DNA of 64,000 nt from Macrostomum lignano. Lineage: Eukaryota. Positions 1 through 18,000 of this stretch are shown here, one piece after another; position 1 is the first letter of the stretch; the number at the start of each line of letters is the position of its first letter. The notes under the pieces are model-generated. The model was not told where the DNA came from. It worked only from the letters and a program-made list of their open reading frames with translations, and searched no databases. The stretch spans positions 1-64,000 of the forward strand of contig NIVC01001082.1 in assembly GCA_002269645.1 (NCBI GenBank), read 5' to 3'. A program made the translations under genes and the position numbers.

Positions 1-123
1 TCTCAAACATAATAATATTATATTCTTTATTCTCCAACATATTGGGTGTGAGATAATTAATCACATTAGAATCGGTTTTGAACGCAGCTCTCCATTTTTA
101 ATCTAAAAAAAATAACAAAAAAA

Positions 124-288
124 ATGAAAGACATTTATGTTTGTAATAAATGTAATGTGACTATGCACAGAGGGCAAACAGCAAACGGAGATATATATCA
201 TATGTGTTATTCATGTTCTAAAATATATCAATTTGAAAAAACAAAAAAGATTGAAAACTCATATTACTATTTTAAAATACAATTTTAA
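124..288 (+). CDS. Small zinc-ribbon protein (54 aa)
   Basis: Hand translation MKDIYVCNKC...HMCYSCSK... gives two CxxC pairs; shorter than any ORF in the supplied track. Confidence 0.5.
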   Translation: MKDIYVCNKCNVTMHRGQTANGDIYHMCYSCSKIYQFEKTKKIENSYYYFKIQF

Positions 289-821
289 GAAATCTTACAA
301 GAGACATTTCTGATCCAATTTTAATTCCCGGAAATAATGTTTATTTATATAATAACTTTTTCCATTTAAATAAAGGAAAGGGATTAAGTTCGAAAGACTC
401 TGAAAGGATTTTAATTTTAGTTGATATTATTTCAATTTTCTTATTCGAGAGAATACAAAGTTTATAAGGATAGGTAACATACCTAACGAAATGTTTGAAA
501 AAGTCATTGGAATTTTATGTATTGATAAAAATTTAAACCTAGATCAGAAGAGAGTTACCACTTTGGGAAGAATATATAACATATGCATTAGAAAAACTAA
601 ACAACCTGAAGTTCTACCGCACTTCCTGACGCGGGCTTTGTGCCCCAGTAGCAATAGTTTCAGGTTCGTAAATGCCTAATGTTTCTATCGGTGGAGCTTT
701 GGGTTTATCGAGTCTCAACTCTTTTAATTCCATATCGGTAAAAGTTTCAACATCTAAAATTCTATTTCTATCTTTTAAATATTTTTCATATAATCAACCG
801 CGGTTGATAATTCATGAATCG

Positions 822-1250
822 TTATCTCTCCGTCATCCAATATTTTTTGCACATATAAATATAATTGATTTTTATATTGTTTGCAACATCTCTTAAAGAT
901 TTATATTTTTCCTTTCTTTTTTTAAGATATAATTTAATTGCTAAAAGTATTGATAAGTTCCTGATCAATTCAAAACCTGATATTGAGCCAATTGAAATAC
1001 CTAAAAATAATTGAGATAAATTAAGAGTTGGAATAGATTGTAAAATACCTAAAACGATTACACATAACATTGATAAGCTTCCAAATCCAATATTGAAAAA
1101 GTCCATATTTCTTATATGGTTTGAAACTCTTCTTACTTTTTTAGCATATAAATCATAATCATAATTTATTCGATCAACATTACTCAACATCTGACCTTTA
1201 CGTTGGTTGAACCGGTCGCGTTCCCATTTATCTGCTTCAGATACCGACAT
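822..1250 (-). CDS. Hypothetical viral protein with two hydrophobic helices flanked by charged helical segments
   Basis: 142-aa ORF; hydrophobic stretches IGFGSLSMLCVIVLGIL and LFLGISIGSISGF...ILLAIKL. Confidence 0.6.
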   Translation of the reverse strand: MSVSEADKWERDRFNQRKGQMLSNVDRINYDYDLYAKKVRRVSNHIRNMDFFNIGFGSLSMLCVIVLGILQSIPTLNLSQLFLGISIGSISGFELIRNLSILLAIKLYLKKRKEKYKSLRDVANNIKINYIYMCKKYWMTER

Positions 1251-1560
1251 TCTCGTCTATTTTTAATAGCACCAAAATGAATTCCCACGCTCTTTGGGAT
1301 TTGCCCGAGCTTAATAGGTATTGTATTGGAGTGATTCTTTCTTTTTTCTCCCATTTAAATCCTATTTTCCAAAACTCTTGAAGTATAATATGATTTTTTA
1401 ATAACTTAATTAATTCTTGAAGCTTCTTATTATCCTGAACATTTACAGTACTAAATAAAAATTTGGTATGAGATTTGAATGTTTTTATATTTGATTCTTG
1501 TTTAGGAATAGGAATAATAACATTATTTTGCCGCATCGATGGAGTTCTACTAAAAGCCAT
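1237..1560 (-). CDS. Hypothetical viral protein (probable start MAFSRTPS at 1560)
   Basis: 3' part of track ORF 1237..1716; the upstream part overlaps the fiber C-terminus in another frame. Confidence 0.45.
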   Translation of the reverse strand: MAFSRTPSMRQNNVIIPIPKQESNIKTFKSHTKFLFSTVNVQDNKKLQELIKLLKNHIILQEFWKIGFKWEKKERITPIQYLLSSGKSQRAWEFILVLLKIDENVGI

Positions 1561-1591
1561 TTTATATAGAAATATTTTATATATAAATATT

Positions 1592-3633
1592 TTATATTTG
1601 AGTAGGAGGTTTTTCCAAATAAGCAGTAGAGGGAAAAACATAACCAAACGACGTACTACCACATACAACTGCGCCACGAATAAAATGTGCAGCATCCGCT
1701 CCAGTTCGAGCACCAAAACCCATAAGGGTTCCAGATTTATCTAAAGTTCCCCAAGTTCCACTATCATATGTGAAAACGTTCTGCCAATGAGGGTAAAAGA
1801 ATCACCAGCAACATTGTATGACTGTAATCGGTACCAAACCCTTTGATTTAAAATATTAACTTCAAATAAATGCCAATCGCCGTTATCAATATTAGCATAG
1901 GCTACAGTTTGATCCGCATCACTACTAACATCGTTACGAACCGTAGATCCGTCTGATTTTTTATTACTCCAAACAACTCCAAACCTATCATGCCACTCAC
2001 TTGCAAAAACTATCAATCCGGCGTCGGTTGATAATCCAGATCCAAATTCCGATGTTGGACGTTGGTGACAGTATGCATAAAACCAAACCGCATCTGCACC
2101 ATCTCCTGTAGCATTAGCAACTCGGAAAAAGAAAGACGCAGATATATTTTGAAAATGTGTGAAATTGAATTGTAAAGCACCACTTACTCCAGAAGTTTCA
2201 CGAGTAATTCTAGCGCCGTTTTGATAATCGATATAAGAAGCGTCACCAATTAAAGAACCGACTGGATATATATCTCCGGCGGTTGTTGGATTTTGATATC
2301 CAGACCAATTGCAAATTACTGGTTCGAACAAGGCCGCATCAATAGCAGGTATTCCATCCAATTTATTTTTATCGCTTCCAGACATTCTACCATTTGATGT
2401 TGGAGTAGCTAGCTGATCTACGTACGCTCGCGGAACTGCAGAAAGTATTTGAGTTGGCCAATTAAGATCTTGAATTTCAACACGGTGTTCAAATAATTGT
2501 ATTTGACGAACCTCGATAGGTTGTGTACCGGTACCACCAGTTGGGAAGAATACGCTATAATATTTCCAAAAATTAGTCGTTAAATTAGATAGAGCAAATG
2601 ATGTTGCTTGAACTGGTGATCCCGACGTAGTTAATGTTGTCCATGAATCGGTAGCAACATTTTTTGCGCGAACCGACCACCCGAGGGTATCTCAATTGTT
2701 TCACTGCCTGTAATTCTTAATTCAAATATTCTTCTATTATAACCTAAAAATTCAAATTGAATTTCCATATTGGTTGTGGTTCCGGTATTTGGTGACCATT
2801 GTGTCGCAAGGCTTCCATCTCCAACTCGAAAAGCTGTGTTGCCATTTTCAGATGCTGTAAGAACAACATCAGGATTTGAAGTATTTGATGTAAGCGGCGT
2901 GGTAAAAATATCGGCGTCGGTTGCATTAGCTCGCTCATTTACTTGGCCTAGAGTTATCGAGTCTGCGTTATCTGTTCCAAATAATAAATTTGTTAATTTA
3001 AAATTATTCATATTAATATTACCACTACGAGTGGCAACTTGATTATCGACATAGTTCTTATCAACCACTGAATCACTAGTTGTAATTGAAACATTTATAA
3101 TTCGGTTGTTGCTCATATCTAGGTTTCCGGTTGCGGTGGTTTGAACATAACGTGAATCAGAATCAGTTCGAGAATAAGAATCAGTTACATCTCTTTTTAA
3201 ATTTAATCCATTATCAACTTCGGTTTTGGTATAAGAATCGGCTACGTTCCGTTTCAAATTTAATGAATTATCAACTTCGGTTTTGGTATAAGAATCGGCT
3301 GTATTGCGTTTTAAATTTAATGAATTATCAACTCGTTTTGGTATAAGAATCGGCTGTATTGCGTTTTAAATTTAATGAATTATCAACTTCGGTTTTGGTA
3401 TAGGAATCGGCTACGTTCCGTTTCAGATTTAGTGAATCATCTATTTGAGTTTTGGTATAGGAATCTGCAACATTTCTTTTTAAATTTAATTTATTATCAA
3501 TTTCAGTTTTTTTATAACCTTCATCCTCATTAATATATCGATTATCTCCAAATGTAACACTTATTCCACCAGATGTGCCACCACCACCACTACTTGTTGT
3601 TCCGTTCCATGAGGGTGTTCCAGAAAATAACAT
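1592..3633 (-). pseudogene. Fiber/receptor-binding protein: 19-aa repeat shaft, discoidin(F5/8)-like domain, phage-tail-type motif, L-lectin/ConA-like head; about 3 frameshifts
   Basis: Joins ORFs 3328..3633, 2631..3257, 1741..2385 and the gaps between them. Repeats KTEVDNSLNLKRNVADSYT; ATPTSNGRMSGSDKNKLDGI; GDGADAVWFY; C-terminal GFGARTG...PPTQI* in a shifted frame. Confidence 0.75.
3170..3520. repeat. 57-bp coding tandem repeat (~6 units) in the fiber gene
   Basis: Unit approx. ttttaaatttaatgaattatcaacttcggttttggtataagaatcggctgtattgcg. Confidence 0.9.
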
Positions 3634-3657
3634 TTTTTACTGTCTATTTTATAGAGT

Positions 3658-4115
3658 CTAAAATCGCCCTAGATCGTCATCATGCTTTGCATGATATAAA
3701 TACTTCGGGGTTTCCTTCGAGTTATTAATCGAATTTAGTCGATATAAAAAATACAACGCCGCTTGCCCGCAATAACTTTTATCAAAGGTTTGAAATTGTT
3801 CGTGATGATCTCCACATAAACGATTTTTAGTATGATTAAATTTGTCTTTTATTTCCTGTAACGGAGGAAGCGCGTATGAATCAAAAAAATAAACAAGTTT
3901 AGGTTTGAATAAACTGCCGACCAATGAACACCATTTTCTTTTGTTGTTTCAATATTAACAATGAAAGATCCATATTGTGGTAAGTCTTTGATCTCATCTC
4001 GCATAACACATCTGAATGGTTTTATTTTTAACTGCCTCGCCCAATTTGTTAATTCGATATTGCTTGTTGTGTCCGTTCCATATCTTTGTTTAAAATCATC
4101 CCACGTCATGGTCAT
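3658..4115 (-). CDS. Adenain-like cysteine maturation protease (one frameshift near 3905)
   Basis: Catalytic motifs GVHW, YFFDSY and Q..DKSYCG are split between ORFs 3849..4115 and 3658..3924. Confidence 0.85.
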
Positions 4116-4116
4116 T

Positions 4117-4323
4117 TTATGTTCCTGAAAAACTCTTGGTTTTAGTTAGTTTCGTAGGTGTGGGTTTTAACAATTCCTTTCTTATTTTATCAGCTTGTAA
4201 CTGCCTTAATTTTGCTAGTTCTAGTTCGTAATTATCTTCAGCTTTTTTAACTTTTTCTGATTGTTTTTTTATTAAATTATTATTATCGTGCTTTGCACGC
4301 GAACATGTTGTTCGATTACCCAT
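4117..4323 (-). CDS. Small basic coiled-coil protein with a possible N-myristoylation start (MGNRTT)
   Basis: 68-aa ORF that fills the gap between penton and protease. Confidence 0.55.
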   Translation of the reverse strand: MGNRTTCSRAKHDNNNLIKKQSEKVKKAEDNYELELAKLRQLQADKIRKELLKPTPTKLTKTKSFSGT

Positions 4324-4333
4324 TTTTACAGTA

Positions 4334-5115
4334 CTAAACCTGTTTTATACGTAAAATTATTGTTATTGACTGCCCACCAAAACTTATTAATCTATCGCTT
4401 TCATCTACAATCCTAATATAAATTGATTGAACATTATATTGATTTAATGGGTAATATATTGGGGTTTGGGTGCAACAATCATTTTCTCTCCAATTGGAAC
4501 AGCAAGAAATGGGATTGAATAAATAATTCCACGTTGAACCAAAACTCCGTTATCGTCTGTTATATAACCGCCGTTTGAAATGTCGGTTGTTATATTAATT
4601 GTATTGACTCCGCCCTCAATTTTCCACGTATCACCGGTGCTTGATGTGGTAACTATTCGGGAATTAAATCCAAGTATGGTTCTGAGTGAATTTGCAATTG
4701 TGAAATCAACCTGATATCCGGATCCTAGTGATAGTGTGAATCTGCCAGACGGTAAATCAACACCTATAACAATTGCTCCTGCTACCCAATCACCATTAGT
4801 TGTTAATTCTCCTTCTATATAAGCATTCAAATCAGTATAGCTATACGCTCCTGGGTTAACGCTAAATGTTGTCCAATTGGCTCCGGAATCTTTAGAATAT
4901 CTAAATTGATTATTTGTTGCATTAATTAATTGAGGCATGTTGAAAACCGAAAATAGTATTAAACCTATTTGATAACTTAGGCTTTGATCAAGTTGTAATG
5001 GATCGCGCAATTGAATCCGTTGCTCGCTGGTTGTCATTATAAACTGTAATGTTGTACTAAATTTTGAATTAGTTCGATCTACCAATTGTTTTATAGTATT
5101 TAAATTTGTAGTCAT
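4334..5115 (-). CDS. Minor capsid protein (penton), one frameshift near 4450
   Basis: PLQLDQSLSYQIGL..NNQFRY..PGAYSYTDLNAYI; the shifted frame continues IYIRIVDESDRLISFGGQSITIILRIKQV*, typical of a Polinton minor capsid C-terminus. Confidence 0.8.
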
Positions 5116-5152
5116 TTTTATAGTGGGAAATTAATCGGACGAAGTCCGCATG

Positions 5153-5983
5153 CTATGCACGATCGAACGAAGTTCGCGACCCTATGGGGCGATCCTCTTC
5201 TTCCTCATTATCTTCTTTTATCAAATTTGTTAAAATTCTATGTTTCCTTTCTAACCTCGGATTGATATAAATATGTTTGTATTGGCTATCATCCCAAATT
5301 TTTTTACACATACTTTTAAATGGTTTTGCATCCAATCCGGGATTAAATCTAGCGTGAATATTTTGTAGATCATAGTTATCTAAATCAAACATTACACAAC
5401 AGCTAGCATTCTTTTTTATAATCGATTCTAATTCTCTAAAGGATTGAGTAAGATAAAAAGCTCCAATTCCATCTCCTCTACCACTAACAAAAATTTCCTT
5501 TTGTAATTCTTGATCACCGTCATTAATACAATCATCAAAAATAATTAGTGTTTTATCATGTTTTGGAATTTGATCATAGGCTAATCGGGTTGATACTCTA
5601 ACAGTTGGGGCGCGATCGGACGAAGTCCGCGACCCTTCGGGGCGATCGGTGATGTTTTCTGGCTGTTGTGCCATTGTTTTACATAAATCCTCAATGTCTG
5701 CTAGATTAAATCGCGGTTCGTCATCATCCTCATATTGCTCATATGCTCTTAACATTCTAAACAAGACATCTTTTTTTAATTTGTTTTTTAATCCATGTTT
5801 AAGAAATTCATAATATTTTATTCTAGGTTTATTAGTATAAATTATTAAATTATTATAGTCTAACATTCCATCTGTTGTTAATAAATCGTAAACAAAGTGT
5901 GTTTTTCCTTTACCTGATCCTCCGATTACTAAACAAAGAAAAGGATCATTTGGAAATATTTTATTGTGTTTTGCCTTTACCAT
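5153..5983 (-). CDS. A32/FtsK-like genome packaging ATPase
   Basis: Walker A GGSGKGKT, Walker B LIIFDD, then SGRG and LTQS motifs. Confidence 0.93.
   Translation of the reverse strand: MVKAKHNKIFPNDPFLCLVIGGSGKGKTHFVYDLLTTDGMLDYNNLIIYTNKPRIKYYEFLKHGLKNKLKKDVLFRMLRAYEQYEDDDEPRFNLADIEDLCKTMAQQPENITDRPEGSRTSSDRAPTVRVSTRLAYDQIPKHDKTLIIFDDCINDGDQELQKEIFVSGRGDGIGAFYLTQSFRELESIIKKNASCCVMFDLDNYDLQNIHARFNPGLDAKPFKSMCKKIWDDSQYKHIYINPRLERKHRILTNLIKEDNEEEEDRPIGSRTSFDRA
5160..5195. repeat. 36-bp double-hairpin cassette, copy 1
   Basis: cgatcgaacGAAgttcgcgaccctatggggcgatcc; a related single hairpin cggacGAAgtccg lies at 5136-5148. Confidence 0.8.
5613..5648. repeat. 36-bp double-hairpin cassette, copy 2 (inside the ATPase ORF)
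   Basis: cgatcggacGAAgtccgcgacccTTCggggcgatcg. Confidence 0.85.
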
Positions 5984-6034
5984 TTTTAAAGAAATAATTT
6001 AAATAGGTGCGACGGTCGGAGACCTGCACTCATT

Positions 6035-7500
6035 TTACAATGGCGCGTCCCGAACAATCGTGCCATCAGCTTTAGCAATTGACATATATTCCTCTAGAAA
6101 CAATACGTGGGCGTCATGCCTGATTACCGGTTTTATTAATCTCTAACATATAATTAAGTCCAATATTGGCTACGTTTTCTTTCTGTGCCGTTAGATCATA
6201 AACAACCACTGGATGAATGTTTAGAAACTCTGTGGGTGTGTACTGAGGGACGGCATACGCTTCATTTTTGGCATAATCTTGATAATATTTTATAAAATCA
6301 TTAACATTATTATTTGCAATATTTAGATTAAGAGGATCTTTAACCGGATAATATTGATCATCAACCTGCAGGCGGATATTCTGAACATTAAACTCGTTAA
6401 TTGCAGCAACTGCGTTGTCTGTTGCGGTGCTGCTTGTGCTGCTATGTCACCCGATTGAAGCCAATATAAATCCCCATTTGCTCTTTTACTCCTTCTATTT
6501 GTTATCTTAAACCAAACAAAAATATATCTCACCCGACGTTTTGATGTCAGTATTTGCCACTGGAATGAATCCTGATTGTTATTAATGGTTCGCATAAAGT
6601 GTCTACGATTCAAATAAAATATTTCCTGATCATGCGTTAACTGATTATCGATGTGTTTTAAAAGCGGGCTGTTACCTCAATAGTTGGTACGACTAATTGA
6701 ATTGAATCTATACGAACTGCTATATCGGTTGAAATTGAGGTTCCATAAAGTATCCTAGGCTGATATCCACCAGATATTTGCAACTGTATCCCAAATTTTA
6801 ATCCTTTCCATACCCGATTTGGTGAGAAAAACCCAAATAGTGGAAAGATTGAAAAGTCCTGCTCATATGCTGTTGCTGTGGTTAAAACCGCGACTGGGAA
6901 TTTATTCTGACGATCTATAAAACCAGTATTAATATCTTTTGTATTAGTCATAGTGGTTACAACTGGAACTATGTTTGTATTAAGGTAAACAATTAGCGCT
7001 GCAGTATCTGCACCGGCTGCGTTTTGTACATTAGGGAAAACTACTGCTTGCCGTTACCTTTATCCGGCATCCACCCAACATTATCACCAACTTGTTTTGA
7101 TAAATAAGTATAATTTAAATGTTTCAAAACTCCATTAATCTCTGCGGGGTTTGATGATGTCTCAACCTCAGCACCATTAACAGTTAGTTGAGCTTGGGAA
7201 AAACATTTATAAAACCAATCATTTTCATTATTATTCCGGATCGATCTGCGATATCTCCGCCTGCAAGAGCAGTTCCATCATTTCTAGTATACAACCATCT
7301 AACGCGGAAAAACGCATTTTTCATATCCAATATAGTGTTGGTTGCGCCGATGTCAAAAGTTACCGTTCCAGTAGTAAAGTTATTTGAATTATCACTTGTT
7401 GGTAGGGTATAATTTAAATCTTTGCTCTGACCTCATTAATATACTGTCGGTGCTTTTTGAAATGAAATTTATCACTCCACATAGTTTTTGTTTCAGCCAT
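6035..7500 (-). pseudogene. Double-jelly-roll major capsid protein with about 6 single-base frameshifts
   Basis: Reassembled from MAETKTMWSDKF... to ...DQYYPVKDPLNL..YYQDY..EFLNIHPVVVYDLTAQKE...IVRDAPL*; the C-terminus has the YYP/DL-Q-E signature of Polinton MCPs. Confidence 0.85.
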
Positions 7501-7534
7501 TTTTTTAAGTTAAAAAAGTTTTTTATGTTAAAAA

Positions 7535-8200
7535 ATGAGTCAATTTATGGACGTTGATGGAGAGTTAGCGATTTATAAAGAGAAGCAAAGATATTCTGAT
7601 TTTGTTAGAAATTTACAAAAAAGAAAGTTAGGAATACAATTAGCGGGTGAAAGATTTGCTGCTCCTTTTGTTAATCCTATTACTGGGAAAATTAGTGAAC
7701 TAGAAAAAACAGATAAAGATCTTCTGGAAAAAATTGCTAAAAATACGGAGCCAAAAGAGGATGAAATTTTGGATGAGCCGCCTGCTTATGATGTTGATCA
7801 AGCACAATTGAGAATTGCAGAGATTAGACGTGCAGAGCGGGGCGATCGGGAACAATATCCAAGAGTACCAGCTAGTATTGCTGCGACAGATTTAGGTAAT
7901 AATAATTATCGAATTGGTGGAGTTGATAAAAATCGAAATGAACTATATAGAGAATTGGGTGGAGCATATAATATTGTTATGAACCCTAGGGTAAAATTTA
8001 ACCCTGATTTATATACTAGGGATGAATTAATAAGTGCTAGAATTTTTTATGATGAGTTAGGAGGAGCTGTTAAAAATACCAGCTTGTATAAAAGGATTGT
8101 TAATTCTATAAATAACAAACCGGCTGTTGGAGAAGGATTTAAAACTCCTAGAAAACTTGTTTTAGCTGCCGCGAAAGCTGCTGGACATACTGGTGTTTAA
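7535..8200 (+). CDS. Hypothetical Polinton protein (221 aa; possible core protein)
   Basis: Intact ORF divergent from the MCP, with viral codon usage. Confidence 0.7.
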   Translation: MSQFMDVDGELAIYKEKQRYSDFVRNLQKRKLGIQLAGERFAAPFVNPITGKISELEKTDKDLLEKIAKNTEPKEDEILDEPPAYDVDQAQLRIAEIRRAERGDREQYPRVPASIAATDLGNNNYRIGGVDKNRNELYRELGGAYNIVMNPRVKFNPDLYTRDELISARIFYDELGGAVKNTSLYKRIVNSINNKPAVGEGFKTPRKLVLAAAKAAGHTGV

Positions 8201-8227
8201 TTAATTGTTAAATTTATTTTTTATAAA

Positions 8228-8830
8228 ATGGAAACTAATAAGATTTGTACTAAGTGTAAACAAGAAAAACCGATGACAAAAGAATTTTATTTTTGGAGAA
8301 ATGATTCAAAAAAATTTAGAAATGATTGTCGATCTTGTCATAATACCTCATCTGCTATTTGGATAAAAAACAATAAAGATAAATGGAATGAATATAGAAA
8401 AAATAAGTATCACACTGATGATAATTACAAACATATTGTTTTAATTAGAAATAGAATAAATTGGGCGTTGAAAAATTTTAATGACAAGGACTATATCTCA
8501 TATCTTGGTTGCACAAAAGAATTCTTTTTTGATTGGTTAAATTTCACAAGAAATTATTATGTATCAAAAGATTATACTGGAAAGTTAGATATTGATCATT
8601 TCATTCCCGCTTCTTCGTTTAGTTACAAAGATGAAGATCAGATGAAAAAGTCTGAACATTGGACAAATAAAAGATACTTAACTAGCGTAGATAATAACTA
8701 TAAAAAAGTTAAACAACCAACCATTGAAGAGTTTGCAAAACAATTGGTGCTTTCATGTATTTTTAAGGCTATTAAAAATGAGCAACCGAACGAAGTTCGC
8801 GTTCCTTCGGAACGATCAAATAGTGTTTGA
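8228..8830 (+). CDS. HNH (endonuclease VII-like, giant-virus type) endonuclease with N-terminal zinc finger
   Basis: CTKC...CRSC zinc finger; YLGCT; IDHFIPASSF...HWTN..L..DN..K HNH core. Confidence 0.85.
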   Translation: METNKICTKCKQEKPMTKEFYFWRNDSKKFRNDCRSCHNTSSAIWIKNNKDKWNEYRKNKYHTDDNYKHIVLIRNRINWALKNFNDKDYISYLGCTKEFFFDWLNFTRNYYVSKDYTGKLDIDHFIPASSFSYKDEDQMKKSEHWTNKRYLTSVDNNYKKVKQPTIEEFAKQLVLSCIFKAIKNEQPNEVRVPSERSNSV

Positions 8831-10388
8831 AGGAGGATTGTTAGATGTTCAAAAAGGATTAACAAGCTTACCACCAATCTTTACTACTGGTAAATATACA
8901 GGGGAACTACACCTACCATCAATGAACTTCACAGGTTAACCCGTGGCCTGAGTGGTAGAAGCAAAGCTACTGCTAGTCACTATTAGTGGCGATGTCTCCA
9001 AATTGCGTGAAACCCGTCATACAGCTTCAAGTACCACTTCAATTGAGAAATCTTTTGAAGGAACAGAGGTAACTCCTCTTCCCAAAGGTAAAAAGCTTGA
9101 AGACACGGTGGCAATGCGCAGCCAAGCTCCTAAGTATTTTAAATATAAGGAGAAGGTTCAGAGAGCAGACGGAGATGGGCGGTAATTATCGCCGCTTAAG
9201 GTGTGCTCCAGCCTCTTTCGAAAGATTGAGGGTAAACTACCCGGCACTCGCTTAGATTTGAGATTAAATCCTGATGACACCCCAAAAGCCGATTCAATTC
9301 CAATAAATGGGATTGATTGGTTAGCATACTATCACGACTTAGCATATAGAGATGCTGACAAGAACCCGCCCGAGGAAGCATTAAGATTAAAACATGAAGC
9401 CGATCAAAAAATGATTCAAGGATTAGATAACTTGCAGGGATTATCGGTAGGGCAAAGATTAACTAGGTGGATGGTTAAAAAAATTCTACAATCTAAAGTT
9501 AAATTTGGTTTAGGAATTAATTACAACCAACATGGTAATAATTGTGTCGAATGTTTGTTATTAAGTGGTAGTGGGCTAAGTTATGATAAGGCTAAGGTTC
9601 TTCATAAAGAATATCGAAAACCTAAATTTTATAGAAAAATCATGAACTTCAAAAAGAATGAAATTTGGTATGCTGATTTAATGTCGATGCCGAACGAAAG
9701 AGGATATAAATATATCTTAACCATATTAGATGGTTTTACTCGATACGCGTGGGCTGTTCCTTTGAAATCCAAAAAAGGAGAGGATGTTGCTGCTGCTTTT
9801 AGAAGTCTTGGAGAAAAAAGCGAACGTTTGTGTGTTGACGAAGGAAAAGAATTTTACAATCCTCATATGTATAAATTATATCATTTTGAAAAAGGACAAG
9901 AAAGGAAAAAAGACGCGAATGGGGAGTATATTAATAAAATTTATTCTATTTATGGAGAGAGTAAAAACGCATTAATAGAAAGATTTAATAGAACTTTAGG
10001 TAAGAAATTATGGTTTCAGTTTAGTCTTAATGGTAACCAAAAATGGGTAAAAATATTACCAGACGTAGTGAAAGATTATAACAATTCATATCATTCGGCG
10101 ATAAAGATGACTCCTCAACAAGCTTATAACAATCCTGAAAACGTTAAAGTTACTTTTGGAAAATTTGAAAAAAATAAAAAGAAATCTTTTAAGGTTGGTG
10201 ATTCTGTTTATATCTATAAATGGAAAGATAAGTTTGAAAAAGGAAGAAAAGGATATTGGAAGATAAGTGAGAAATTTACTATCAGTAAAGTTTTAAATAC
10301 CAATCCTACAACCTATATAATTGCTGATAAGGACGGTGAAGAAATATTGGGTTCGTTTTATGAGAACCAACTAATATCAGCGAACTAA
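8778..10388 (+). CDS. PLA2 (parvovirus VP1u-like) - DDE/rve integrase fusion, 435 aa after splicing; exon 1 8778-8936, exon 2 9240-10388
   Basis: Exon 1 ends GELHLPSMNFTG and exon 2 starts PGTRL..PINGIDWLAYYHDLAY (Ca loop plus HDxxY). Integrase motifs WYADL, CVDEGKEF, IERFNRTL, YNNSYHS and GSFYENQL follow in the same frame. Confidence 0.9.
8783..8818. repeat. 36-bp double-hairpin cassette, copy 3 (HNH/PLA2 overlap)
   Basis: caaccgaacGAAgttcgcgttccTTCggaacgatca. Confidence 0.8.
8937..9239 (+). ncRNA. Group I self-splicing intron (IC-like architecture with P2, P2.1, P5abc), 303 nt, no ORF, terminal A
   Basis: P AAAUUGCGUGAAA 9000-9012; Q CAAUGCGCA 9112-9120; R GUUCAGAGAGCA 9156-9167; S UAAGGUGUGCUCC 9197-9209. 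P3 GUCUCC/GGAGAU; P7 G(A)GAGCA/UGCUCC; P1 CAGGU/GCCUG with a U.G pair at the splice site. Removal restores NFTG-PGT. Confidence 0.93.
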
Positions 10389-10398
10389 GTTCGAACAA

Positions 10399-10623
10399 TT
10401 ACTTGAGACAACATGGTAGTAAATTTTTTATAACAAACAAAAACAATATTATTACTATAATTGTTACTAATATTATTATTGACATTTGTTCAACTGTTAT
10501 CAAACTTAAATTTTCATTAAGTTCATTAATCGGCACATTTCCGATGTAGGAATAGTTTACCTTCATTTTTTTATATATATTTTTCACAATAAATGTCGTT
10601 TCTGTTATAGAATAATAGTTCAT
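10399..10623 (-). CDS. Small membrane protein (74 aa, C-terminal TM helix ending PCCLK)
   Basis: IIILVTIIVIILFLFVI hydrophobic run. Confidence 0.55.
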   Translation of the reverse strand: MNYYSITETTFIVKNIYKKMKVNYSYIGNVPINELNENLSLITVEQMSIIILVTIIVIILFLFVIKNLLPCCLK

Positions 10624-10639
10624 TTTTTAAATATTTTTT

Positions 10640-10954
10640 TCACATAAAAATTTCACTTTCATTCTCTGAATCACTGGTTTCATATGAACTATTTGTTGAT
10701 TCGGAATCTGTTGATCTAACCTCCCAATCATCCGAATTTAAATAATCTCCAAGTTGAAATATTAACTCACCCTCTTGTTCTAAATCATACATCTCATCTA
10801 GCTCTAATGGATAAAGTTTTAGGTCGTGCTTGTCGTCATATTTTAAATAAACTTCATCAATTATTCCATTCAAAATATGTTGTTTTATTATCTCTGCATT
10901 TTTAGCAACAGTCTCAAAAGTATCACTAACAGAAAAGGTGTAAACTCGGGTCAT
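10640..10954 (-). CDS. Hypothetical acidic viral protein (104 aa)
   Basis: Intact ORF with a Ser/Glu-rich tail. Confidence 0.6.
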   Translation of the reverse strand: MTRVYTFSVSDTFETVAKNAEIIKQHILNGIIDEVYLKYDDKHDLKLYPLELDEMYDLEQEGELIFQLGDYLNSDDWEVRSTDSESTNSSYETSDSENESEIFM

Positions 10955-11011
10955 TTTTAGTATCAGAAAAAGACCCTTCGCGCCTGCGGCGCGGGCAAGG
11001 GGTTATAGAGT

Positions 11012-11279
11012 AGTAGTATAGAAAAAGACGCTTCTAGATCAGACCTTATTTTAATGGCCGTTTGTAAGGTCTTAGGAGGGGGGACGCGAGGGGGGTGTTG
11101 GGGAGTGTTTGGAAGTGTTGGGAAGTGATTTTTATTGTTAGGGGTGATTATGGGTGATTAGATGTGTTAATGGTGTTTAGATGTGTTTTTTTATTTACCC
11201 CCCGTGTCCCCCCTCTAGACCCTTAAAACGGTCATTAAAAAAGTGCTCTGGGTCTAGAAGCGTCTTTTTCTATACTACT
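11012..11279. repeat. Polinton terminal region with an internal inverted copy of the terminus
   Basis: agtagtatagaaaaagacgcttctaga (11012-11038) is the exact reverse complement of 11253-11279, and the match extends imperfectly to about 80 bp. Confidence 0.9.
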
Positions 11280-12571
11280 GAGGCCGACAAGGAGGAGGAG
11301 GATCGAGACGGGTATTTAAGCGCGACCAATGAGAGATGATCTGAGTTCTTATCTGCCCAGCCCTGATTTGTGCAATATTTCACTATATTGAATGCTCTCG
11401 GGTCATGAAGCCGCTCCTTAAATTTTCCTTAAAAGGGTAGAGAGCAGTGGGACAGTAAAGAGTATAGATAGGGTAGGGTGCGATCGAAATTCCTAAAACA
11501 GCAAAAGAGCATATCATAATAAGCCAACGAGGATTTGCAAATGGCACCAACAAATGTGACTGTACACTATTTCGAAAGTCTAAAGTCATAAAGCGAGTCT
11601 TTATTTTCACAGTACACAAAGTTTTAAAACTGATTGATAAAATTTTCATGTAACCTAAGTTTGGTTTGACGCAGGCACACCTCTACTAATCGTATTGTCG
11701 TGCACGTGTCAAACGAAAACTTTCTACACGAAGCATGATTCACTTGGCAATACAAAAAAATAAATTAATTATGTGCAGAGGCCAGAGGCTGAGCTGAGAA
11801 GTGAGAAAGAGTGGCGGATTATATTAATGCCTTATTTTTGTTATAATAAACTGAGTCTGTCGCATGCAAAACGCACTACTTTCAATGGAATAGATAGGGT
11901 GCAAATTGCCCACGGCTAACAAAAATATAATAAATAAATTAATTTTTTGATAACCACTGTTTAAAAGTATTTAAAATGAATAATTTTATTAGCAAAATAT
12001 TACACGAAGACTGTCTAAAACTTATGAGGCGCAATTTTTATTAAATGAAAATTATAATTAGCTAAAATTAAATAAGTAAGAAAACAATAAATAAAATATA
12101 TTGAACATTTAGTATTATCATAATAAAAATAAATTGGCTTGCTTTCGTCGCAAATTATAACGTGTGCAGTGAATTCGGATAAATAATAAACACGATTTAA
12201 ATTAAAAATGTTTTCATTAACGGCTTATATTCTTAAATTTAATTATCTCTTTCTTTTATGCAATATTAATCATATATAGCTTTCTATATTCAATATATAA
12301 ATAGCATGGTATTTGTATTATTCGTTCGTATATTTTATAATTAAAATATTTGCTACATTAGGTACATGTTTGGTAATTGGTATTTGCTAAAATTAAAAAT
12401 ATACCTGTGGTGATTAACAGCATACTAGCAAACTTCATTTTTAAGCTCCAGGATCTGAGATGGTCAATAATATATTACTTGCAATTATTCAATATATTGC
12501 GACAAAAATAAACCAAAACAATACTACTTAACCAACTATTAAGTTATTATAATAAACATTGACCGTTATGA

Positions 12572-13801
12572 TTAAACACTTTGAATCTTTCCACCAGTGC
12601 TACTAGAAGCGGCAGCGGCAGCGGCAGATTTCAATTTCTGCTGCTGCAACTGTTGCAGATGCAGCTGGTGCAGCTGGCGCATATCGTTGGCCCTGGAGGC
12701 CGCGTATCCGAGAGTGCCGAGCAGGATCAGAAACACCGACAGCCACCACAGCGGGCTTGTGCTCTGCCGGAAGTAGAACACCGCAACCAGCGTCTGCGCA
12801 GTGGTGTGAGCGCTATTGCTAATCACCAGGGTTAGCGGAGAGGTCACGTGAATCACTCGATACGTCAGCACGCCGAACGCCGCGGTGCCAATGTTAGACA
12901 GGACCAGAGTGGCCAAGAAGCCGGGGGTGATCAGTTCAGTCCAGTGCTGGCGCAGCAGCCACAGCTGGTCTGTGCACATCAGCAGCGGCAGGAACAGCAC
13001 AGCGCAGGTGGCATTCAGAGCGCAGGTGAGCAGCATTGGCGAATAGGCAAAGCTGGGCAGCACCTTCTTAGTCAGGGTTGTCTCCATAGAGGCGAACAAG
13101 CTCGACACGGTGCCGAATATGAAGCCTTTGAAGGTGACACTGTCGAGCGACTGGTTGACGCCCAGGCTGAAGCCGGCGATCACCACTCCGCAGCAGGCGA
13201 GGCTCGACCGGCGAACCGGCGAGCTGAGCAGCCAGTACGTGAATGCCAAGGTGAACACGACAGTCAGTGAGCGAGATATCTGCAGGCAGGCGACGCCAAC
13301 CTGCCGTAGCGACATCCGGTTAAAGGTGAGCATACCGATGAAGCTCAGGCAGAGCGGTAGGAAAGCTCGGTTGCGGGTCAGAAGGTCTCGAACCTTCAGC
13401 TGGAGCAGCTGGTCGCGCTGCCACGTCCAGATCAGCGGGGCCAACAGGATGCTGGCGCTCATAGTCTGCACTGCGGACAGCAGGATGGCGAGGTTAGGCA
13501 GTCGGTGATCCACCAGGAAGCTGTTCGAGAAGGTGATAGTGGAGGATAGGATCCAGTGCGCCGCCAGAACCAGCAGTACGTTCAGGTCGGAGCGCCAGCC
13601 ACCGCCGACGTCGCCGCTAGCGGTATCGCTGTCCTCGGAGTCCGAGCAGGTCGACAAGGAAGCCGTACTAGGCGACCTTGGCGCGTCATTCGATGGCATC
13701 TTAGTCAACGAGGAGGCACTGCCAGATTCCAGATTGCAGTCTTGATTAGCCACCGCTGCTGCTGACGACCTAAAGACGTCCGTGTCACCAGCTGTTGTCA
13801 T
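12572..13801 (-). CDS. SLC35C1: GDP-fucose transporter-like nucleotide-sugar transporter (SLC35C1-like), single exon
   Basis: Multi-TM protein with GVA....RSLTVVF, FGTVSSLFAS....LTKKVLP and VTSPLT...S....TAQT..AV motifs. Confidence 0.75.
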   Translation of the reverse strand: MTTAGDTDVFRSSAAAVANQDCNLESGSASSLTKMPSNDAPRSPSTASLSTCSDSEDSDTASGDVGGGWRSDLNVLLVLAAHWILSSTITFSNSFLVDHRLPNLAILLSAVQTMSASILLAPLIWTWQRDQLLQLKVRDLLTRNRAFLPLCLSFIGMLTFNRMSLRQVGVACLQISRSLTVVFTLAFTYWLLSSPVRRSSLACCGVVIAGFSLGVNQSLDSVTFKGFIFGTVSSLFASMETTLTKKVLPSFAYSPMLLTCALNATCAVLFLPLLMCTDQLWLLRQHWTELITPGFLATLVLSNIGTAAFGVLTYRVIHVTSPLTLVISNSAHTTAQTLVAVFYFRQSTSPLWWLSVFLILLGTLGYAASRANDMRQLHQLHLQQLQQQKLKSAAAAAASSSTGGKIQSV

Positions 13802-15072
13802 GACAAACGGCGCATCTACCTATGCTCCGATCGGAACAACTCTCTAGAGCAAGGGTTCTGCTGGTTCGCCGTCTTTATTTTCAATAATTTTTCACTGCTG
13901 TCCGCCTGAAACCTATTTGCTCACGTGTCTCTCTCTCTCCTCTCTCCGGCCCCTCTAACGGCCGTTTTTCTCCTTTCCAACTTTTTGGAACTGTAAAGAA
14001 TTTCACAGCTCGAATGAGAAGTAAGAGAGAGAGAGCGGAGTGCTTGCAAAAGCGAGATATACAATAGTAATAGTGGCACAGGGCACAGTAGTTGCAGGCG
14101 ACCTATGAGGAACTTGTATAAGGACGAATGCAAATGCTATCCCTTTGCCACTATACCCGTGCCCCGCTCCCAACACAGCTGTTCCTACACTGCCATTGGT
14201 TTGCAAGCTTTGGGTCTATGCTGTATTGTTCTCTATTAGGGGCAGAGTCAGAGAGCTAAATAGAAGAAATCGATTGTGGGCGCGCTCTGAGTACGTGACA
14301 AGCAACCACTATATACTTAAACCCTTCTTGCTCCTTCGCCAATCTTTCGCTTCCTTCTCATAGCTGTTCGACGTTTAGCTTCGATCTTGCAAGTAGCTAA
14401 GGAGAAGTTGGTCGTAGAAAATTTTTGAGAAAAGGAAACTCACGTTTCAACTACTCTATTTCGTTATATTTGCTTAGTATAGGGAAGTCGTAGGCAGCTT
14501 GCAGCTCGCATACTTTCCTTGAATCTCGACTTGGCTCTGCTCGTGCAATTAACGGCTTAACGCCTTTGAGGGCCAACCTCCCTAAAGGTACAGTGAAGTG
14601 TACATGCCTAACGATAATTAAGTTAGGGCTCTTGGGGGTATGGGGTGGTTGCTGAGATGCCAAGGGTCAATTTCAATTGGAAATTATCGGTAGGCCAAGC
14701 CAAAGGTAGCAAAATTGTGGCAAAACAGTTGTCGTGATACAGTTAAATTTGAGAGAAAATGCACTAGAAAGATTAGAGCTGCCTGAATAACAATTAATCT
14801 ATCATAAAGCAACTGAGGCATAAAACTAAATGAGGCCGGATTTCAACGCAAAGCTTAACTTAGCTATTGTACATACAATAGGAAAGACTTTAAGTTAGCT
14901 TGGTTGGCAGTTTACAATAAATATTCCTGCCGGATCGAATCAAGACCAGAGTACCAATTCAAATGCAATAATATACTGGCTTCACTGCGCTTCACATGCT
15001 GGAGTGGAAATCGAAGGACCATAACTAGATGCTATTTTTAGAACTGCAAACGTCACAGGCCTGTAATAAAAG

Positions 15073-18000
15073 TTGACTTACTTGACTTAGCTGCAGGGGG
15101 GCGTCCGGCGGATGCAGCGAAAAGGCGGAGACCGCCCATTCCGCTAGCCCCTGGCGACCAATGGCTTCCGTCGAAGCGATGTCGCGCAGGGGAACCCGTC
15201 GGTCTGCAGCGCGGTCCTCCTCACCAGCGGTGGGGAAGAAATCAGCTCGTCCCGTGTCCCTAGGGTACCGGGCGAGCAGCGGGATGCTCACGGGCCTGCA
15301 AACGTCGGAAAGAACCGACATAGTGAGTGAGCCTGGCCCTGGTGAAAGCCGGGCAGTGGCAGATAAAGTGCTCGGCGTTTTCACTGCCTGAGCGGCAGAA
15401 GGGGCACCGCTCCTCGGGTACTTGGCCCTGAAGGAAGCGGTGGCGAGAGAAGCAGCCATGCCTGGAGAGGGCCATGCTGACTGCTCTGAGGACTCTGCGG
15501 TTGAGCCTGAGGAGGGCTCTACGCAGGTGAGGAGAGGGGCAGGGGACGGCCGCACGGGAATTGCCTACTATTCCGGGTGTCCTGCCACCTGTTGAGATGC
15601 TCGGAGTCAGTCCAGCGCTTAACGCGGGAATTGATCCCCGAGGCGGGCATCGGGGCCCCCGGGCCTGGCCCTAGCAGCGCGCCGGCGGAGCCAGCCTTGG
15701 CCAGCAGGTCAGCGCGCTCGTTGCCGAGGAAACCAGCGTGGCCCGGGATCCATCTGAGCTCCACCTGGTTGCCTAGCGCAAGCCCGTTGAGCTGGGCGTT
15801 GCAGTCCAGGACAGATCTGGACAGACAGGACAGACAGGACAGACATTGTCGAAGGCCCCCTCAATGTCCAGGAAAAGCGAGAGGGCAAAGCCGCTGCCAA
15901 GAACGGCCCTCTCCAGGAAGTCAACAATGACATGGAGGGCACTCTCGGTAGACCTGCCCGCGCGGAAGGCGTGCTGGTTCTGCGAGAGTGGAAAGGGCTT
16001 CAACACGACCGAAAGTAGTCGCCAAAGCACCAGTCTTTCGAGGAGCTTGAGGCAGAAAGATGTGAGGCTGATAGGCCTGAAGGCCTTCACCGATTGATAG
16101 TCTCTCTTTCCAGGCTTGGGGATAAAGACCACCCGGGCCTCTCTCCACGCAACTGGTACATAGCCCAGCTCCACACAAGCTCGGAGGAGACGACAGAGCA
16201 GGTCCAGGAAGCGTTGGTTTTTCACCGCCTCGTGCAAGAAAGCTGGGTAGATGCCGTCGGGCCCAGGCGCCTTGAACGGGTTAAAGGACCTTGCCGCTCT
16301 AATAATGCGGTCTTTGGTGATTATAGACTTCGCTAGGCCTTGCCCTCCAACGGTGTGGTCAGATAGGCCCTGCTGAGTCGGAGATTTAGGGAGGAGACTA
16401 TGGAGCTTTAGAGTTTCGTCAGAGCTCTCTGTGACCGAGCCATCAGGTCTGATCTTCACAACAGAGAGTTTAGAAAAACGGTCATTCGTGAGTGCCTTTA
16501 CCATGCGGGCTACGGGGCAAGAGCCCTCAAGCCCTTCGCAGTATTGGCGTCACTTGGCCGTCTTGGCCCTTCTGACTTGGCCCTTAAATTTGTGGATCGC
16601 ATGGGTATAGGCCTCTCTATCAGATGGGTCTTTGGTTTTGAGCGCTCGCCTTTGGAGGGTCCTGGCTCGGCACCGAAGGGCCCCGAGCTCTGGGTTCCAC
16701 CAGGGAGCAGATTTCTTGCCTTTGTAGGCCTTTAGAGGGCAGGCTACCTCAAAGGCAGTGGTGATCGCCCCGCCCAGGGAGGAGGCGAGATCATCCACAA
16801 CCCGGCAGTCAGAGAGGTCACTGGGGAGGTCAAGATCCCGAATGTCGCGGCTCAGCTTCGAGCCAAAGACGGCACAATCGGTATTCCTGACGTTCCTCGT
16901 GAGAGTGAGACCTCCTCCCACACTCGCCAGCCCGTAACTGTGGACAGAAGTCCGGGTGAGGCGATGGTGGTGTCGATGACTTCGGCCCACAGCCCGTTAT
17001 TAAACTTTGGTGCATTGCCCACGTTACAGAAGTTGAGGTTCGTGCTGCTGACGTAGGCCAGCTCCTCGCTTCTGTTGTTGGTGCTCTTGCTGCCCAAATG
17101 CAGGTGGTGCGCGTTCACATCCCCTGCAATGAGCAGTTCGAACCGGCGGGACGCGACGTAGTCAATGAGGTTGACTAGCGCGTCGCAGACTACTGGGGCA
17201 TCGCCTGGGAAATAGGCAGATGCTGCCAGCACGCGTTTATTGGGAAGGAGGTTATTGGTTTGAACAACACAGATGTCCCCGGTCGAGAGATCAGGTCTCA
17301 TTCATGCCTCAAAAGCTTTTGCAGCAAAGACCAGAGATCTTGGTGAGAGTCCGCCATGCAAAAGCAGTGGTAGTCAGATGGCACATTATTTGGCGTACCT
17401 TTAGTCATCCAGGGCTCCTGCACGAAAAACAGGCCCGGAAGCTGTTGCTCTGTCGTGCGCATCAGGTTGAATGACGCCGCCACGCAGTGCTGGGTGTTGA
17501 TCTGCAGACACCAGGTAGCCGCTGGCATCATTGCAGATCGGGCGTTGCAGCCGCCAGGAGTTCCTCCTCCTCCTCGGCGCTCACCAGCTTCGGGTCAGGG
17601 TCACCGGTGTCCATGGGCTCCTCTTCAACAAAAGGCCACTGGCCAGTCGATCGGAAGGCAGTAGGCAGCGTTCGCCGCCCTTCGCCCATCGGCTACGGGG
17701 TCCTCCGTCTCGGAGTGGCCCAATGCCCTGGAGCAGCCAGCCGCCTGGGCAGGCGGGTCCGTCTCCAGTCGGCCCTGCGGCCGAGGGGTTGGGCCCAGCT
17801 GAGACGTCCCCACCCTCCCTGGACGAGCTGCTGCGCCTGGGCGTCCCGGCGACCTCTCTCCTCAGCTGGGTGATTTTAGCGGTGCGGACCGCCTCAGCTG
17901 CGCGCTGGTACAGGCCGCGCCGTCTGGTGCTGCGCGCTTCTGCTAGTGCTGAATTCCTTCTGCTTTGAGCTCTAAGCGCATGGAACGAAACAGAACAGTA
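15073..18000 (-). mobile_element. Degenerate LOA/I-group non-LTR retrotransposon (APE - partial RT - RNase H - CCHC), 5'-truncated and internally deleted
   Basis: QINTQH, VQEPW, GDVNAHH, KAPGPDGI, FRPISLTSF, FLDIEGAFDNV, WIPGHAGFLGNERADLLAK, CPFC...HFICHC; short 3' tandem repeat ttgactta at 15073-15090. Confidence 0.9.

Follow-up and report, generated by a model that had tools for sequence, protein, structure and literature searches.

A group I intron whose inherited majority allele ends in A, in a PLA2-integrase gene of Macrostomum lignano

A group I intron near the beginning of a 64,000-nucleotide stretch of Macrostomum lignano DNA (contig NIVC01001082.1; the whole stretch is referred to here as the window) has A9239 as its terminal base, in the position known as the omega nucleotide. 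This terminal A is not a peculiarity of one copy but a standing, inherited allele, carried by the majority of the copies in a recombining viral population. Omega-A as such is an already known exception amongst group I introns; less usual are the occurrence of both alleles together, the majority held by A, and the setting in a nuclear protein-coding gene of what is probably an animal endogenous virus. The explanation that we prefer, and to which we give somewhat better than an even chance, is that the A-ending ribozyme still joins its exons at the expected G|PGT junction, probably more slowly than the G-ending copies do, with A as the inherited majority allele.

The intron, its host gene and the element that carries it

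The intron occupies positions 8937-9239 on the plus strand (303 nt, without an ORF of its own) and matches the Rfam group I intron family RF00028 at 8927-9230 with 57.8 bits (E 5.7e-14), where the gathering score is 50. A faster Rfam gathering scan of the whole window did not pick it up, and no RNA family besides RF00028 was found within positions 1-12000. The intron opens with TAA, a stop codon when read in frame with exon 1, and its bounds are given by intron-less sister copies (L117-119, L129-136), which read across the junction as ...YNFAG|PGT, YSYAG|PGT or YSFTG|PGT. This G|PGT junction fixes the end of exon 1 at U8936, the start of exon 2 at C9240 and the last intron base at A9239, in agreement with the original prediction of a 3' splice site directly after this A, and sister alleles carry G in exactly this column. 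Splice sites slid by one base were considered from the sequence and rejected in both directions: a shift to the left loses the U.G wobble and yields omega-U, and a shift to the right converts the Pro to Ser and yields omega-C. A reading of the intron 3' end as coding sequence, with omega at a silent codon position, was likewise rejected, as several lineages have stops in this frame. An intron-less allele with the window copy's own exon 1 ending was found at no place in the genome, and a second junction pattern, sought for intron-less alleles, occurs at three. A protein search for spliced forms recovered five relatives, none of them identical at the junction to the window's intron family, designated family A. 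In the exon 2 protein search of the genome 150 of the 489 candidates were scored, and the loci of all 150 were examined.

The host gene encodes a parvovirus-type PLA2-like domain joined to an rve integrase. Exon 1 (8778-8936, plus strand) contributes 53 codons from the ATG at 8778, the last being the Gly codon that precedes PGT at the junction, and exon 2 (9240-10388, plus strand; 382 codons and a stop) contributes the rest of the PLA2-like domain, including its YYHDLAY motif, and the integrase. In Pfam, exon 2 matches PF08398 weakly and PF00665 at 32.7 bits (cut-off 32.6), and the protein of an intron-less sister matches PF08398 at 31.6 bits (cut-off 23.9). The PLA2 part gave nothing significant against the PDB and had no relative among the viral contigs searched; four protein relatives (P0001-P0004) also have PLA2 fused to integrase. 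Small palindromic inserts of ~33-35 nt lie in frame in exon 1 (8782-8816) and in the ATPase gene described below (~5135-5200 and ~5605-5650). Other copies are without them, the joint in exon 1 then being 8781>8817, and a similar palindromic insert is present in the intron of family B, a second family at the same site. These inserts are possibly a tiny mobile palindrome.

The gene belongs to an AT-rich, multi-copy element that makes up the first 11.3 kb of the window. From its sequence it is called Polinton-like, on account of the rve integrase, an A32-like packaging ATPase (5153-5983, minus strand; PF04665, 28.9 bits) and a right end at 11012-11279 that has a 27-nt perfect inverted repeat, with the terminus AGTAGT on the minus strand. 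The window is the start of a contig in a 764-Mb genome, and as this contig begins inside the element the left end is missing; a target-site duplication was not seen. A capsid-like gene (6114-7053, minus strand) is split across frames in the window, either by decay or by assembly error, and is whole (493 aa) in sister copies; neither this capsid candidate nor a protease-like fragment gave an informative match in Pfam or PHROGs. A free-standing ORF at 8228-8830 on the plus strand, directly upstream of the PLA2-integrase gene, encodes a zinc-finger/HNH-like endonuclease (in PHROGs, E 3.4e-08 to endonuclease VII, with matches to HNH families as well). Beside one sister copy (L461) is an ORF in which the motifs DANNLYG, NNAFYGK and YADTDS were recognized by eye as those of a type-B polymerase; it has no polymerase match in Pfam, PHROGs or the PDB. 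At a further locus (L160, C393:169400-170400), the 3' half of the family A intron stands without its 5' half behind unrelated ORFs and before an open exon 2, an arrangement that reads as a rearranged element without exon 1. Adjoining the element in the window is an uninterrupted ORF for a nucleotide-sugar (GDP-fucose-like) transporter (12572-13801, minus strand), beyond which an RT/RNase-H-like retroelement remnant was seen by eye at ~15000-16500. The transporter gene marks the host as a eukaryote, and the PLA2-bearing, adintovirus-type gene set points to an animal (PMC8502044).

Four states of the G|PGT site are found in this one genome, namely intron families A, B and C and the intron-less form. 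Family B (L081-L108) occurs in a sublineage of ~60% protein identity and has canonical P7 and J8/7 elements. Family C (24 copies, including L152 and L109-L114) shares its P2 and P5 modules with family A and differs in its core, which is unscored by Rfam. For the guide of family C the best pairing is with an exon that begins at the Thr codon, so that the Pro-Gly codons would be lost, and the intron's 3' end holds a copy of these codons plus two bases; the 3' site may have shifted here, or the intron may be removed in two steps. The nuclease encoded at 8228-8830 is a candidate partner for collaborative homing of the ORF-less intron. Other copies have, in place of this HNH-type ORF, a nuclease-like ORF of an unrelated kind, judged by eye to be PD-(D/E)XK-like, the HNH-like and the other type numbering 57 versus 25 among A-ending copies and 23 versus 5 among G-ending copies, with the HNH-like type in 27/28 of family B. 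Intron-less copies also carry the adjacent HNH-like ORF.

Frequency and inheritance of the terminal A

A 17-mer spanning the A-ending junction has exact matches at 56 places of the genome, the window included, and its reversed control at none; the same context with a different last base occurs at one place, and a looser G-ending pattern at 19. The P7 marker of family A has exact matches at 113 genome places. The copies analysed here, likewise 113 and all distinct, were recovered with up to two substitutions allowed and form nearly the same set as the exact matches, of which at least three listed places are not included. The base at 9239 in other copies, named as a check by the original prediction, is A in the majority: 84 of the 113 copies end in A and 29 in G, so that the sisters are not mostly G. 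That G-ending alleles of the same intron exist in the same genome had been absent from that prediction. At 98% identity the copies fall into 54 groups, 36 with A only, 15 with G only and three mixed; the largest groups (19 and 8 copies) are A-ending. Short-read contigs from five runs (X2, X3, X4, X7 and X9), coming from four studies of which one is possibly the assembly's own source, span position 9239 and show A with no other letter.

The same counts dispose of two explanations that had been offered for the window copy, a base-call error and a G-to-A change that inactivated the intron after integration. The window copy is indeed damaged elsewhere, as its split capsid-like ORF illustrates, but A is present at the 56 exact places, in nearly three-quarters of the copies and in short-read contigs from four studies, and it occurs on many backgrounds that display no extra decay. 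Amongst copies with both exons, both are open in 43/67 A copies and 16/27 G copies; exon 2 alone is open in 45/70 and 16/27, respectively (Fisher p 0.65), and exon 1 in 75/81 A copies. Error and late mutation are thus refuted as the source of A9239.

Omega changes state at least 15 times on a tree of 109 family A intron bodies, from which four copies were omitted because their 5' site was not found, and identical bodies carry either base, as in the pairs L062/L077 and L161/L035. Support on this tree is weak (three starred branches of 74), and the tree is unable to root A against G. At sites farther than 6 nt from omega, r2 with it never exceeds 0.19, and linkage is confined to positions +3 (0.52, range 0.52-0.65), +6 (0.37) and -1 (0.27). 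Over the gene as a whole, median r2 is 0.32 for sites 1-6 nt apart and declines to 0.03 at distances above 100 nt, and exon 2 diversity is 0.074 within A copies and 0.078 between A and G copies. Because the linkage of omega does not reach past 6 nt, the terminal A is an allele standing in a population that recombines rather than the mark of one lineage. The link between omega and +3 lies near the upper quartile (0.57) for any pair of sites 1-6 nt apart, and therefore does not demonstrate compensation between these two positions.

Family B, the sister intron at the same site (Rfam 72-91 bits), has omega-G in all 28 of its copies, and a genome search found no A-ending match to it. For this reason G is probably the ancestral omega state, although the intron tree itself is unable to root the two alleles. 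CpG decay was considered as the origin of A and judged unlikely, since 28/29 copies with the G allele have TG or AG at this point. The majority held by A over many backgrounds, with G persisting, could also mean that A is favoured, either because it cuts the dose of integrase and PLA2 or because it blocks 3'-site hydrolysis and the formation of circles, in balance with G. A proposal in the published text on the anemone intron is that omega-A keeps the 3' site from being hydrolysed and the intron from circularizing (PMC8146996), and intron retention as a form of regulation has been discussed (PMC6545197). However, frequency cannot tell selection from drift combined with the amplification of a few lineages, and the uniform G of family B at the very same site speaks against an advantage of A, which leaves this explanation distinctly unlikely.

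The ribozyme core and probable splicing at an A-ending 3' site

All parts of the ribozyme lie on the plus strand. P1 is formed by exon positions 8932-8936 with the guide at 8946-8950, and its U8936.G8946 wobble at the 5' splice site is kept in 84/84 A copies and in 28/28 aligned G copies. The common variants of P3 (8993-8999 with 9171-9177) and P4 (9004-9009 with 9115-9120) retain pairing, and among the 113 copies those of P9, a GAAA hairpin at 9212-9231, do so as well. In P7, the guanosine-binding helix (9161-9167 with 9204-9209), all six pairs are retained in 113/113 copies; its G9163-C9208 pair, the equivalent of G264-C311, is invariant throughout this set and is canonical, as had been claimed from the window copy. 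The lower layer of P7 is a natural variant, with G266-C309 and G306 in Tetrahymena numbering. An adaptation to A was rejected as the meaning of this variant, which the 29 G copies all share and which recurs in giant-virus introns with an apparent terminal G. The catalytic core as a whole has five deviations over 41 positions in 113 copies, each in no more than two copies, and shared variants in the A copies fall on 8/89 hand-defined core sites versus 49/213 peripheral sites. The protein is conserved in a comparable manner in both allele classes: YYHDLAY is invariant in the 65/65 A and 25/25 G copies that pass the in-frame filter, and shared synonymous to non-synonymous changes number 25:22 in exon 1, 58:22 in the PLA2 part and 42:19 in the integrase core for A copies, and 15:13, 37:14 and 33:10 for G copies.

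Two pairings bear directly on the 3' splice site. P9.0 (9210-9211 with 9237-9238, that is, A9210-U9238 and G9211-C9237) encloses P9, and the pairing proposed for the window copy proves to be unbroken in 84/84 A copies versus 17/29 G copies, or 39/39 versus 10/17 when the copies are collapsed into groups, a contrast that traces to about three breaking events among the G copies. P10 is formed by intron positions 8940-8945 opposite the first five bases of exon 2. The register proposed for it, CCCGG against 8941-8945, is present in the window with four of five pairs (9240-9244 against 8945-8941), and falls short of a full helix in that C9241 stands unpaired opposite U8944. Exon base +3 pairs with G8943, giving an in-register P10, in 13/20 A haplotypes versus 2/16 G haplotypes; the duplex energy of the commonest haplotypes is -3.3 kcal/mol for A versus -7.5 kcal/mol for G, the latter in a shifted register, and P10 is not stronger in A overall. 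Ten G-ending copies (L038, L041, L044, L045 and others) end in CAG, so that their P9.0 is broken and their 3' end resembles a spliceosomal acceptor; the nearest GT donor for these copies (8935) is out of frame.

In published accounts of the second step, omega-G forms a triple with G264-C311, stacked with P9.0, and P10 follows (PMC10020454, PMC6155759); P9.0 and P10 are both described there as determinants of the 3' site (PMC6155759, PMC10020454). According to the explanation preferred here, the first step of splicing would be normal, with free guanosine bound in the unchanged G9163-C9208 pocket and attacking at U8936. In the second step the A would be unable to form the usual base triple, and P9.0 and P10, each more complete in A copies, would position the 3' site. 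The expected consequence is that less of the full PLA2-integrase fusion is made, translation of unspliced RNA halting at the TAA that opens the intron. An allele frequency of 74% amid a near-invariant catalytic core suggests tolerance rather than decay: if splicing were dispensable in three-quarters of the copies, other ribozyme-breaking changes would be expected to be common, and they are rare. As the copies recombine, selection on the core and the exons may nevertheless have acted in G-ending or intron-less carriers. The natural omega-A ribozyme envisaged by the original prediction is, with a heritable A and an intact pocket, the best reading of these data, on support that is indirect and drawn from sequence; the accompanying suggestion that omega-A may throttle integrase expression is plausible. 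Contigs of eight runs (five guessed to be RNA, one guessed to be DNA and two of unknown kind) contain no 8936>9240 joint for either A or G alleles, and several run unbroken over the 3' site, which counts neither way, given that contigs drop rare forms and may derive from DNA.

A different possibility is that the A allele is dead for splicing, or nearly so, and persists by means of integrase made from start codons in exon 2 or supplied by helper copies, its core being refreshed by recombination. The rve domain does lie entirely in exon 2, where two in-frame ATGs (9411 and 9471) precede it, and possible helpers are at hand in the G-ending quarter of family A (29/113), in family B with its G-ending introns (28/28) and in the intron-less copies. 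Free recombination uncouples omega from the remaining sites, and the omega-G triple is central to the second step (PMC10020454). Yet a dead allele fits poorly with the rarity of other null-type core changes, found in at most 2/113 copies while A stands at 74%, and with P9.0, which is relevant only to the second step and is nonetheless intact in every A copy; the biggest near-identical groups, moreover, are A-ending. We regard this possibility as doubtful, if still the most credible of the alternatives. Unlikely, in our estimate, is a balanced switch between the two alleles, in which the A form, with its intact P9.0 and better-registered P10, would splice accurately and slowly and would thereby set the dose of integrase-phospholipase made from integrated copies.

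Very improbable is a use of some other site, whether a nearby G or a spliceosomal junction, or a bypass of the intron through a start codon in its 3' end. Candidate Gs are present at +4, +5 and -7 to -9, the exon 2 frame is open from 9186 within the intron, and the 3' site of family C has apparently shifted downstream. However, +4, +5, -7 and -8 are out of frame, the G at -9 (G9230) is paired in P9 in 113/113 copies, and use of the next in-frame G, at +21, would remove the PGT motif. A bypass is opposed by stops in the intron-internal frame in several lineages, and spliceosomal joining of the GT at 8935 to the AG at 9229-9230, as read from the sequence, would lead to an immediate stop.

Relation to known introns and value of the two alleles

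The mitochondrial ND5-717 intron of scleractinian corals is an omega-A exception, and the Coxiella burnetii intron Cbu.L1917, a bacterial group I intron, is reported to lack omega-G and still splice; the latter differs from the present case in being an rRNA intron. Omega-A is also reported for the ND5-717 intron of the sea anemone Stichodactyla (PMC8146996), and omega-G has been lost in mushroom corals (PMC6545197). Hexacoral ND5-717 introns without omega-G ligate their exons exactly, with more than 70% of the precursor left unspliced and circles not detected (PMC6545197). The likeness lies in a natural intron without omega-G in a protein-coding gene, and exact ligation at low efficiency is the model adopted here. 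The differences are that ND5-717 is mitochondrial, obligatory and vertically inherited, with its splicing demonstrated, whereas the family A intron is optional, resides in a mobile nuclear element in which A and G alleles coexist and recombine, and is described here from its sequence.

Amongst the viral loci examined, the closest cores are those of introns at the NADFDGD motif of giant-virus RNA polymerase genes (IMG/VR L210, L211, L230 and L261, and metagenome L397), which agree with the family A core at ~70% over 180-190 nt; L210, L211 and L397 also have its variant P7 lower layer. These introns differ in their host gene and in apparently ending in G, at a junction inferred from the protein motif. 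Scanning metagenomes for the P7 marker yielded 119 stretches; two of them had a matching P7 partner, and only L397 resembled a genuine intron. Many viral group I introns among the IMG/VR loci L209-L291 have the P6 motif in common. In three loci (L232, L233 and L274) position 306 is G when 266-309 departs from C-G, and covariation of the lowest layer of the guanosine site in viral introns is possible on the strength of these.

Introns of RF00028 type, ~310-380 nt long, have been described from endogenous Polinton-like elements of protists (PMC12220804); the portions available of that work know them only from Paulinella, Desmodesmus and a cryptophyte, where they interrupt a short gene that lies upstream of the capsid gene, and make no mention of the terminal base. 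These protist viruses resemble the Macrostomum element in having RF00028 introns and differ from it in their hosts and in the gene that carries the intron. Adintoviruses and animal Polintons with PLA2X offer a likeness in gene content, combining a parvovirus-type PLA2, an integrase and a packaging ATPase (PMC8502044), but in the Macrostomum element the PLA2 is fused to the integrase; the sole mention of 'intron' in the accessible text of that paper concerns an unrelated matter. Within a literature search in which subscription journals were thinly covered, no report of group I introns in animal Polintons was found. The portions available of PMC11296320, PMC4227781, PMC2588497, PMC3984707 and bioRxiv 10.1101/2023.08.22.554363 contain nothing on omega-A.

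The setting of the intron matters in its own right, since a 2013 review (PMC3679873), like a further account (PMC8395846), confines nuclear group I introns in its available text to rRNA genes, and the Polinton-like cases found in print are from protists. For exon ligation by a group I ribozyme without omega-G, the natural cases in the published texts consulted are vertically inherited mitochondrial introns, in which A and G are not comparable on one background. The main value of the Macrostomum intron is accordingly the comparison of A with G inside a single genome: as identical intron bodies occur there with either base, allele-resolved RNA reads could measure the cost of omega-A in vivo.
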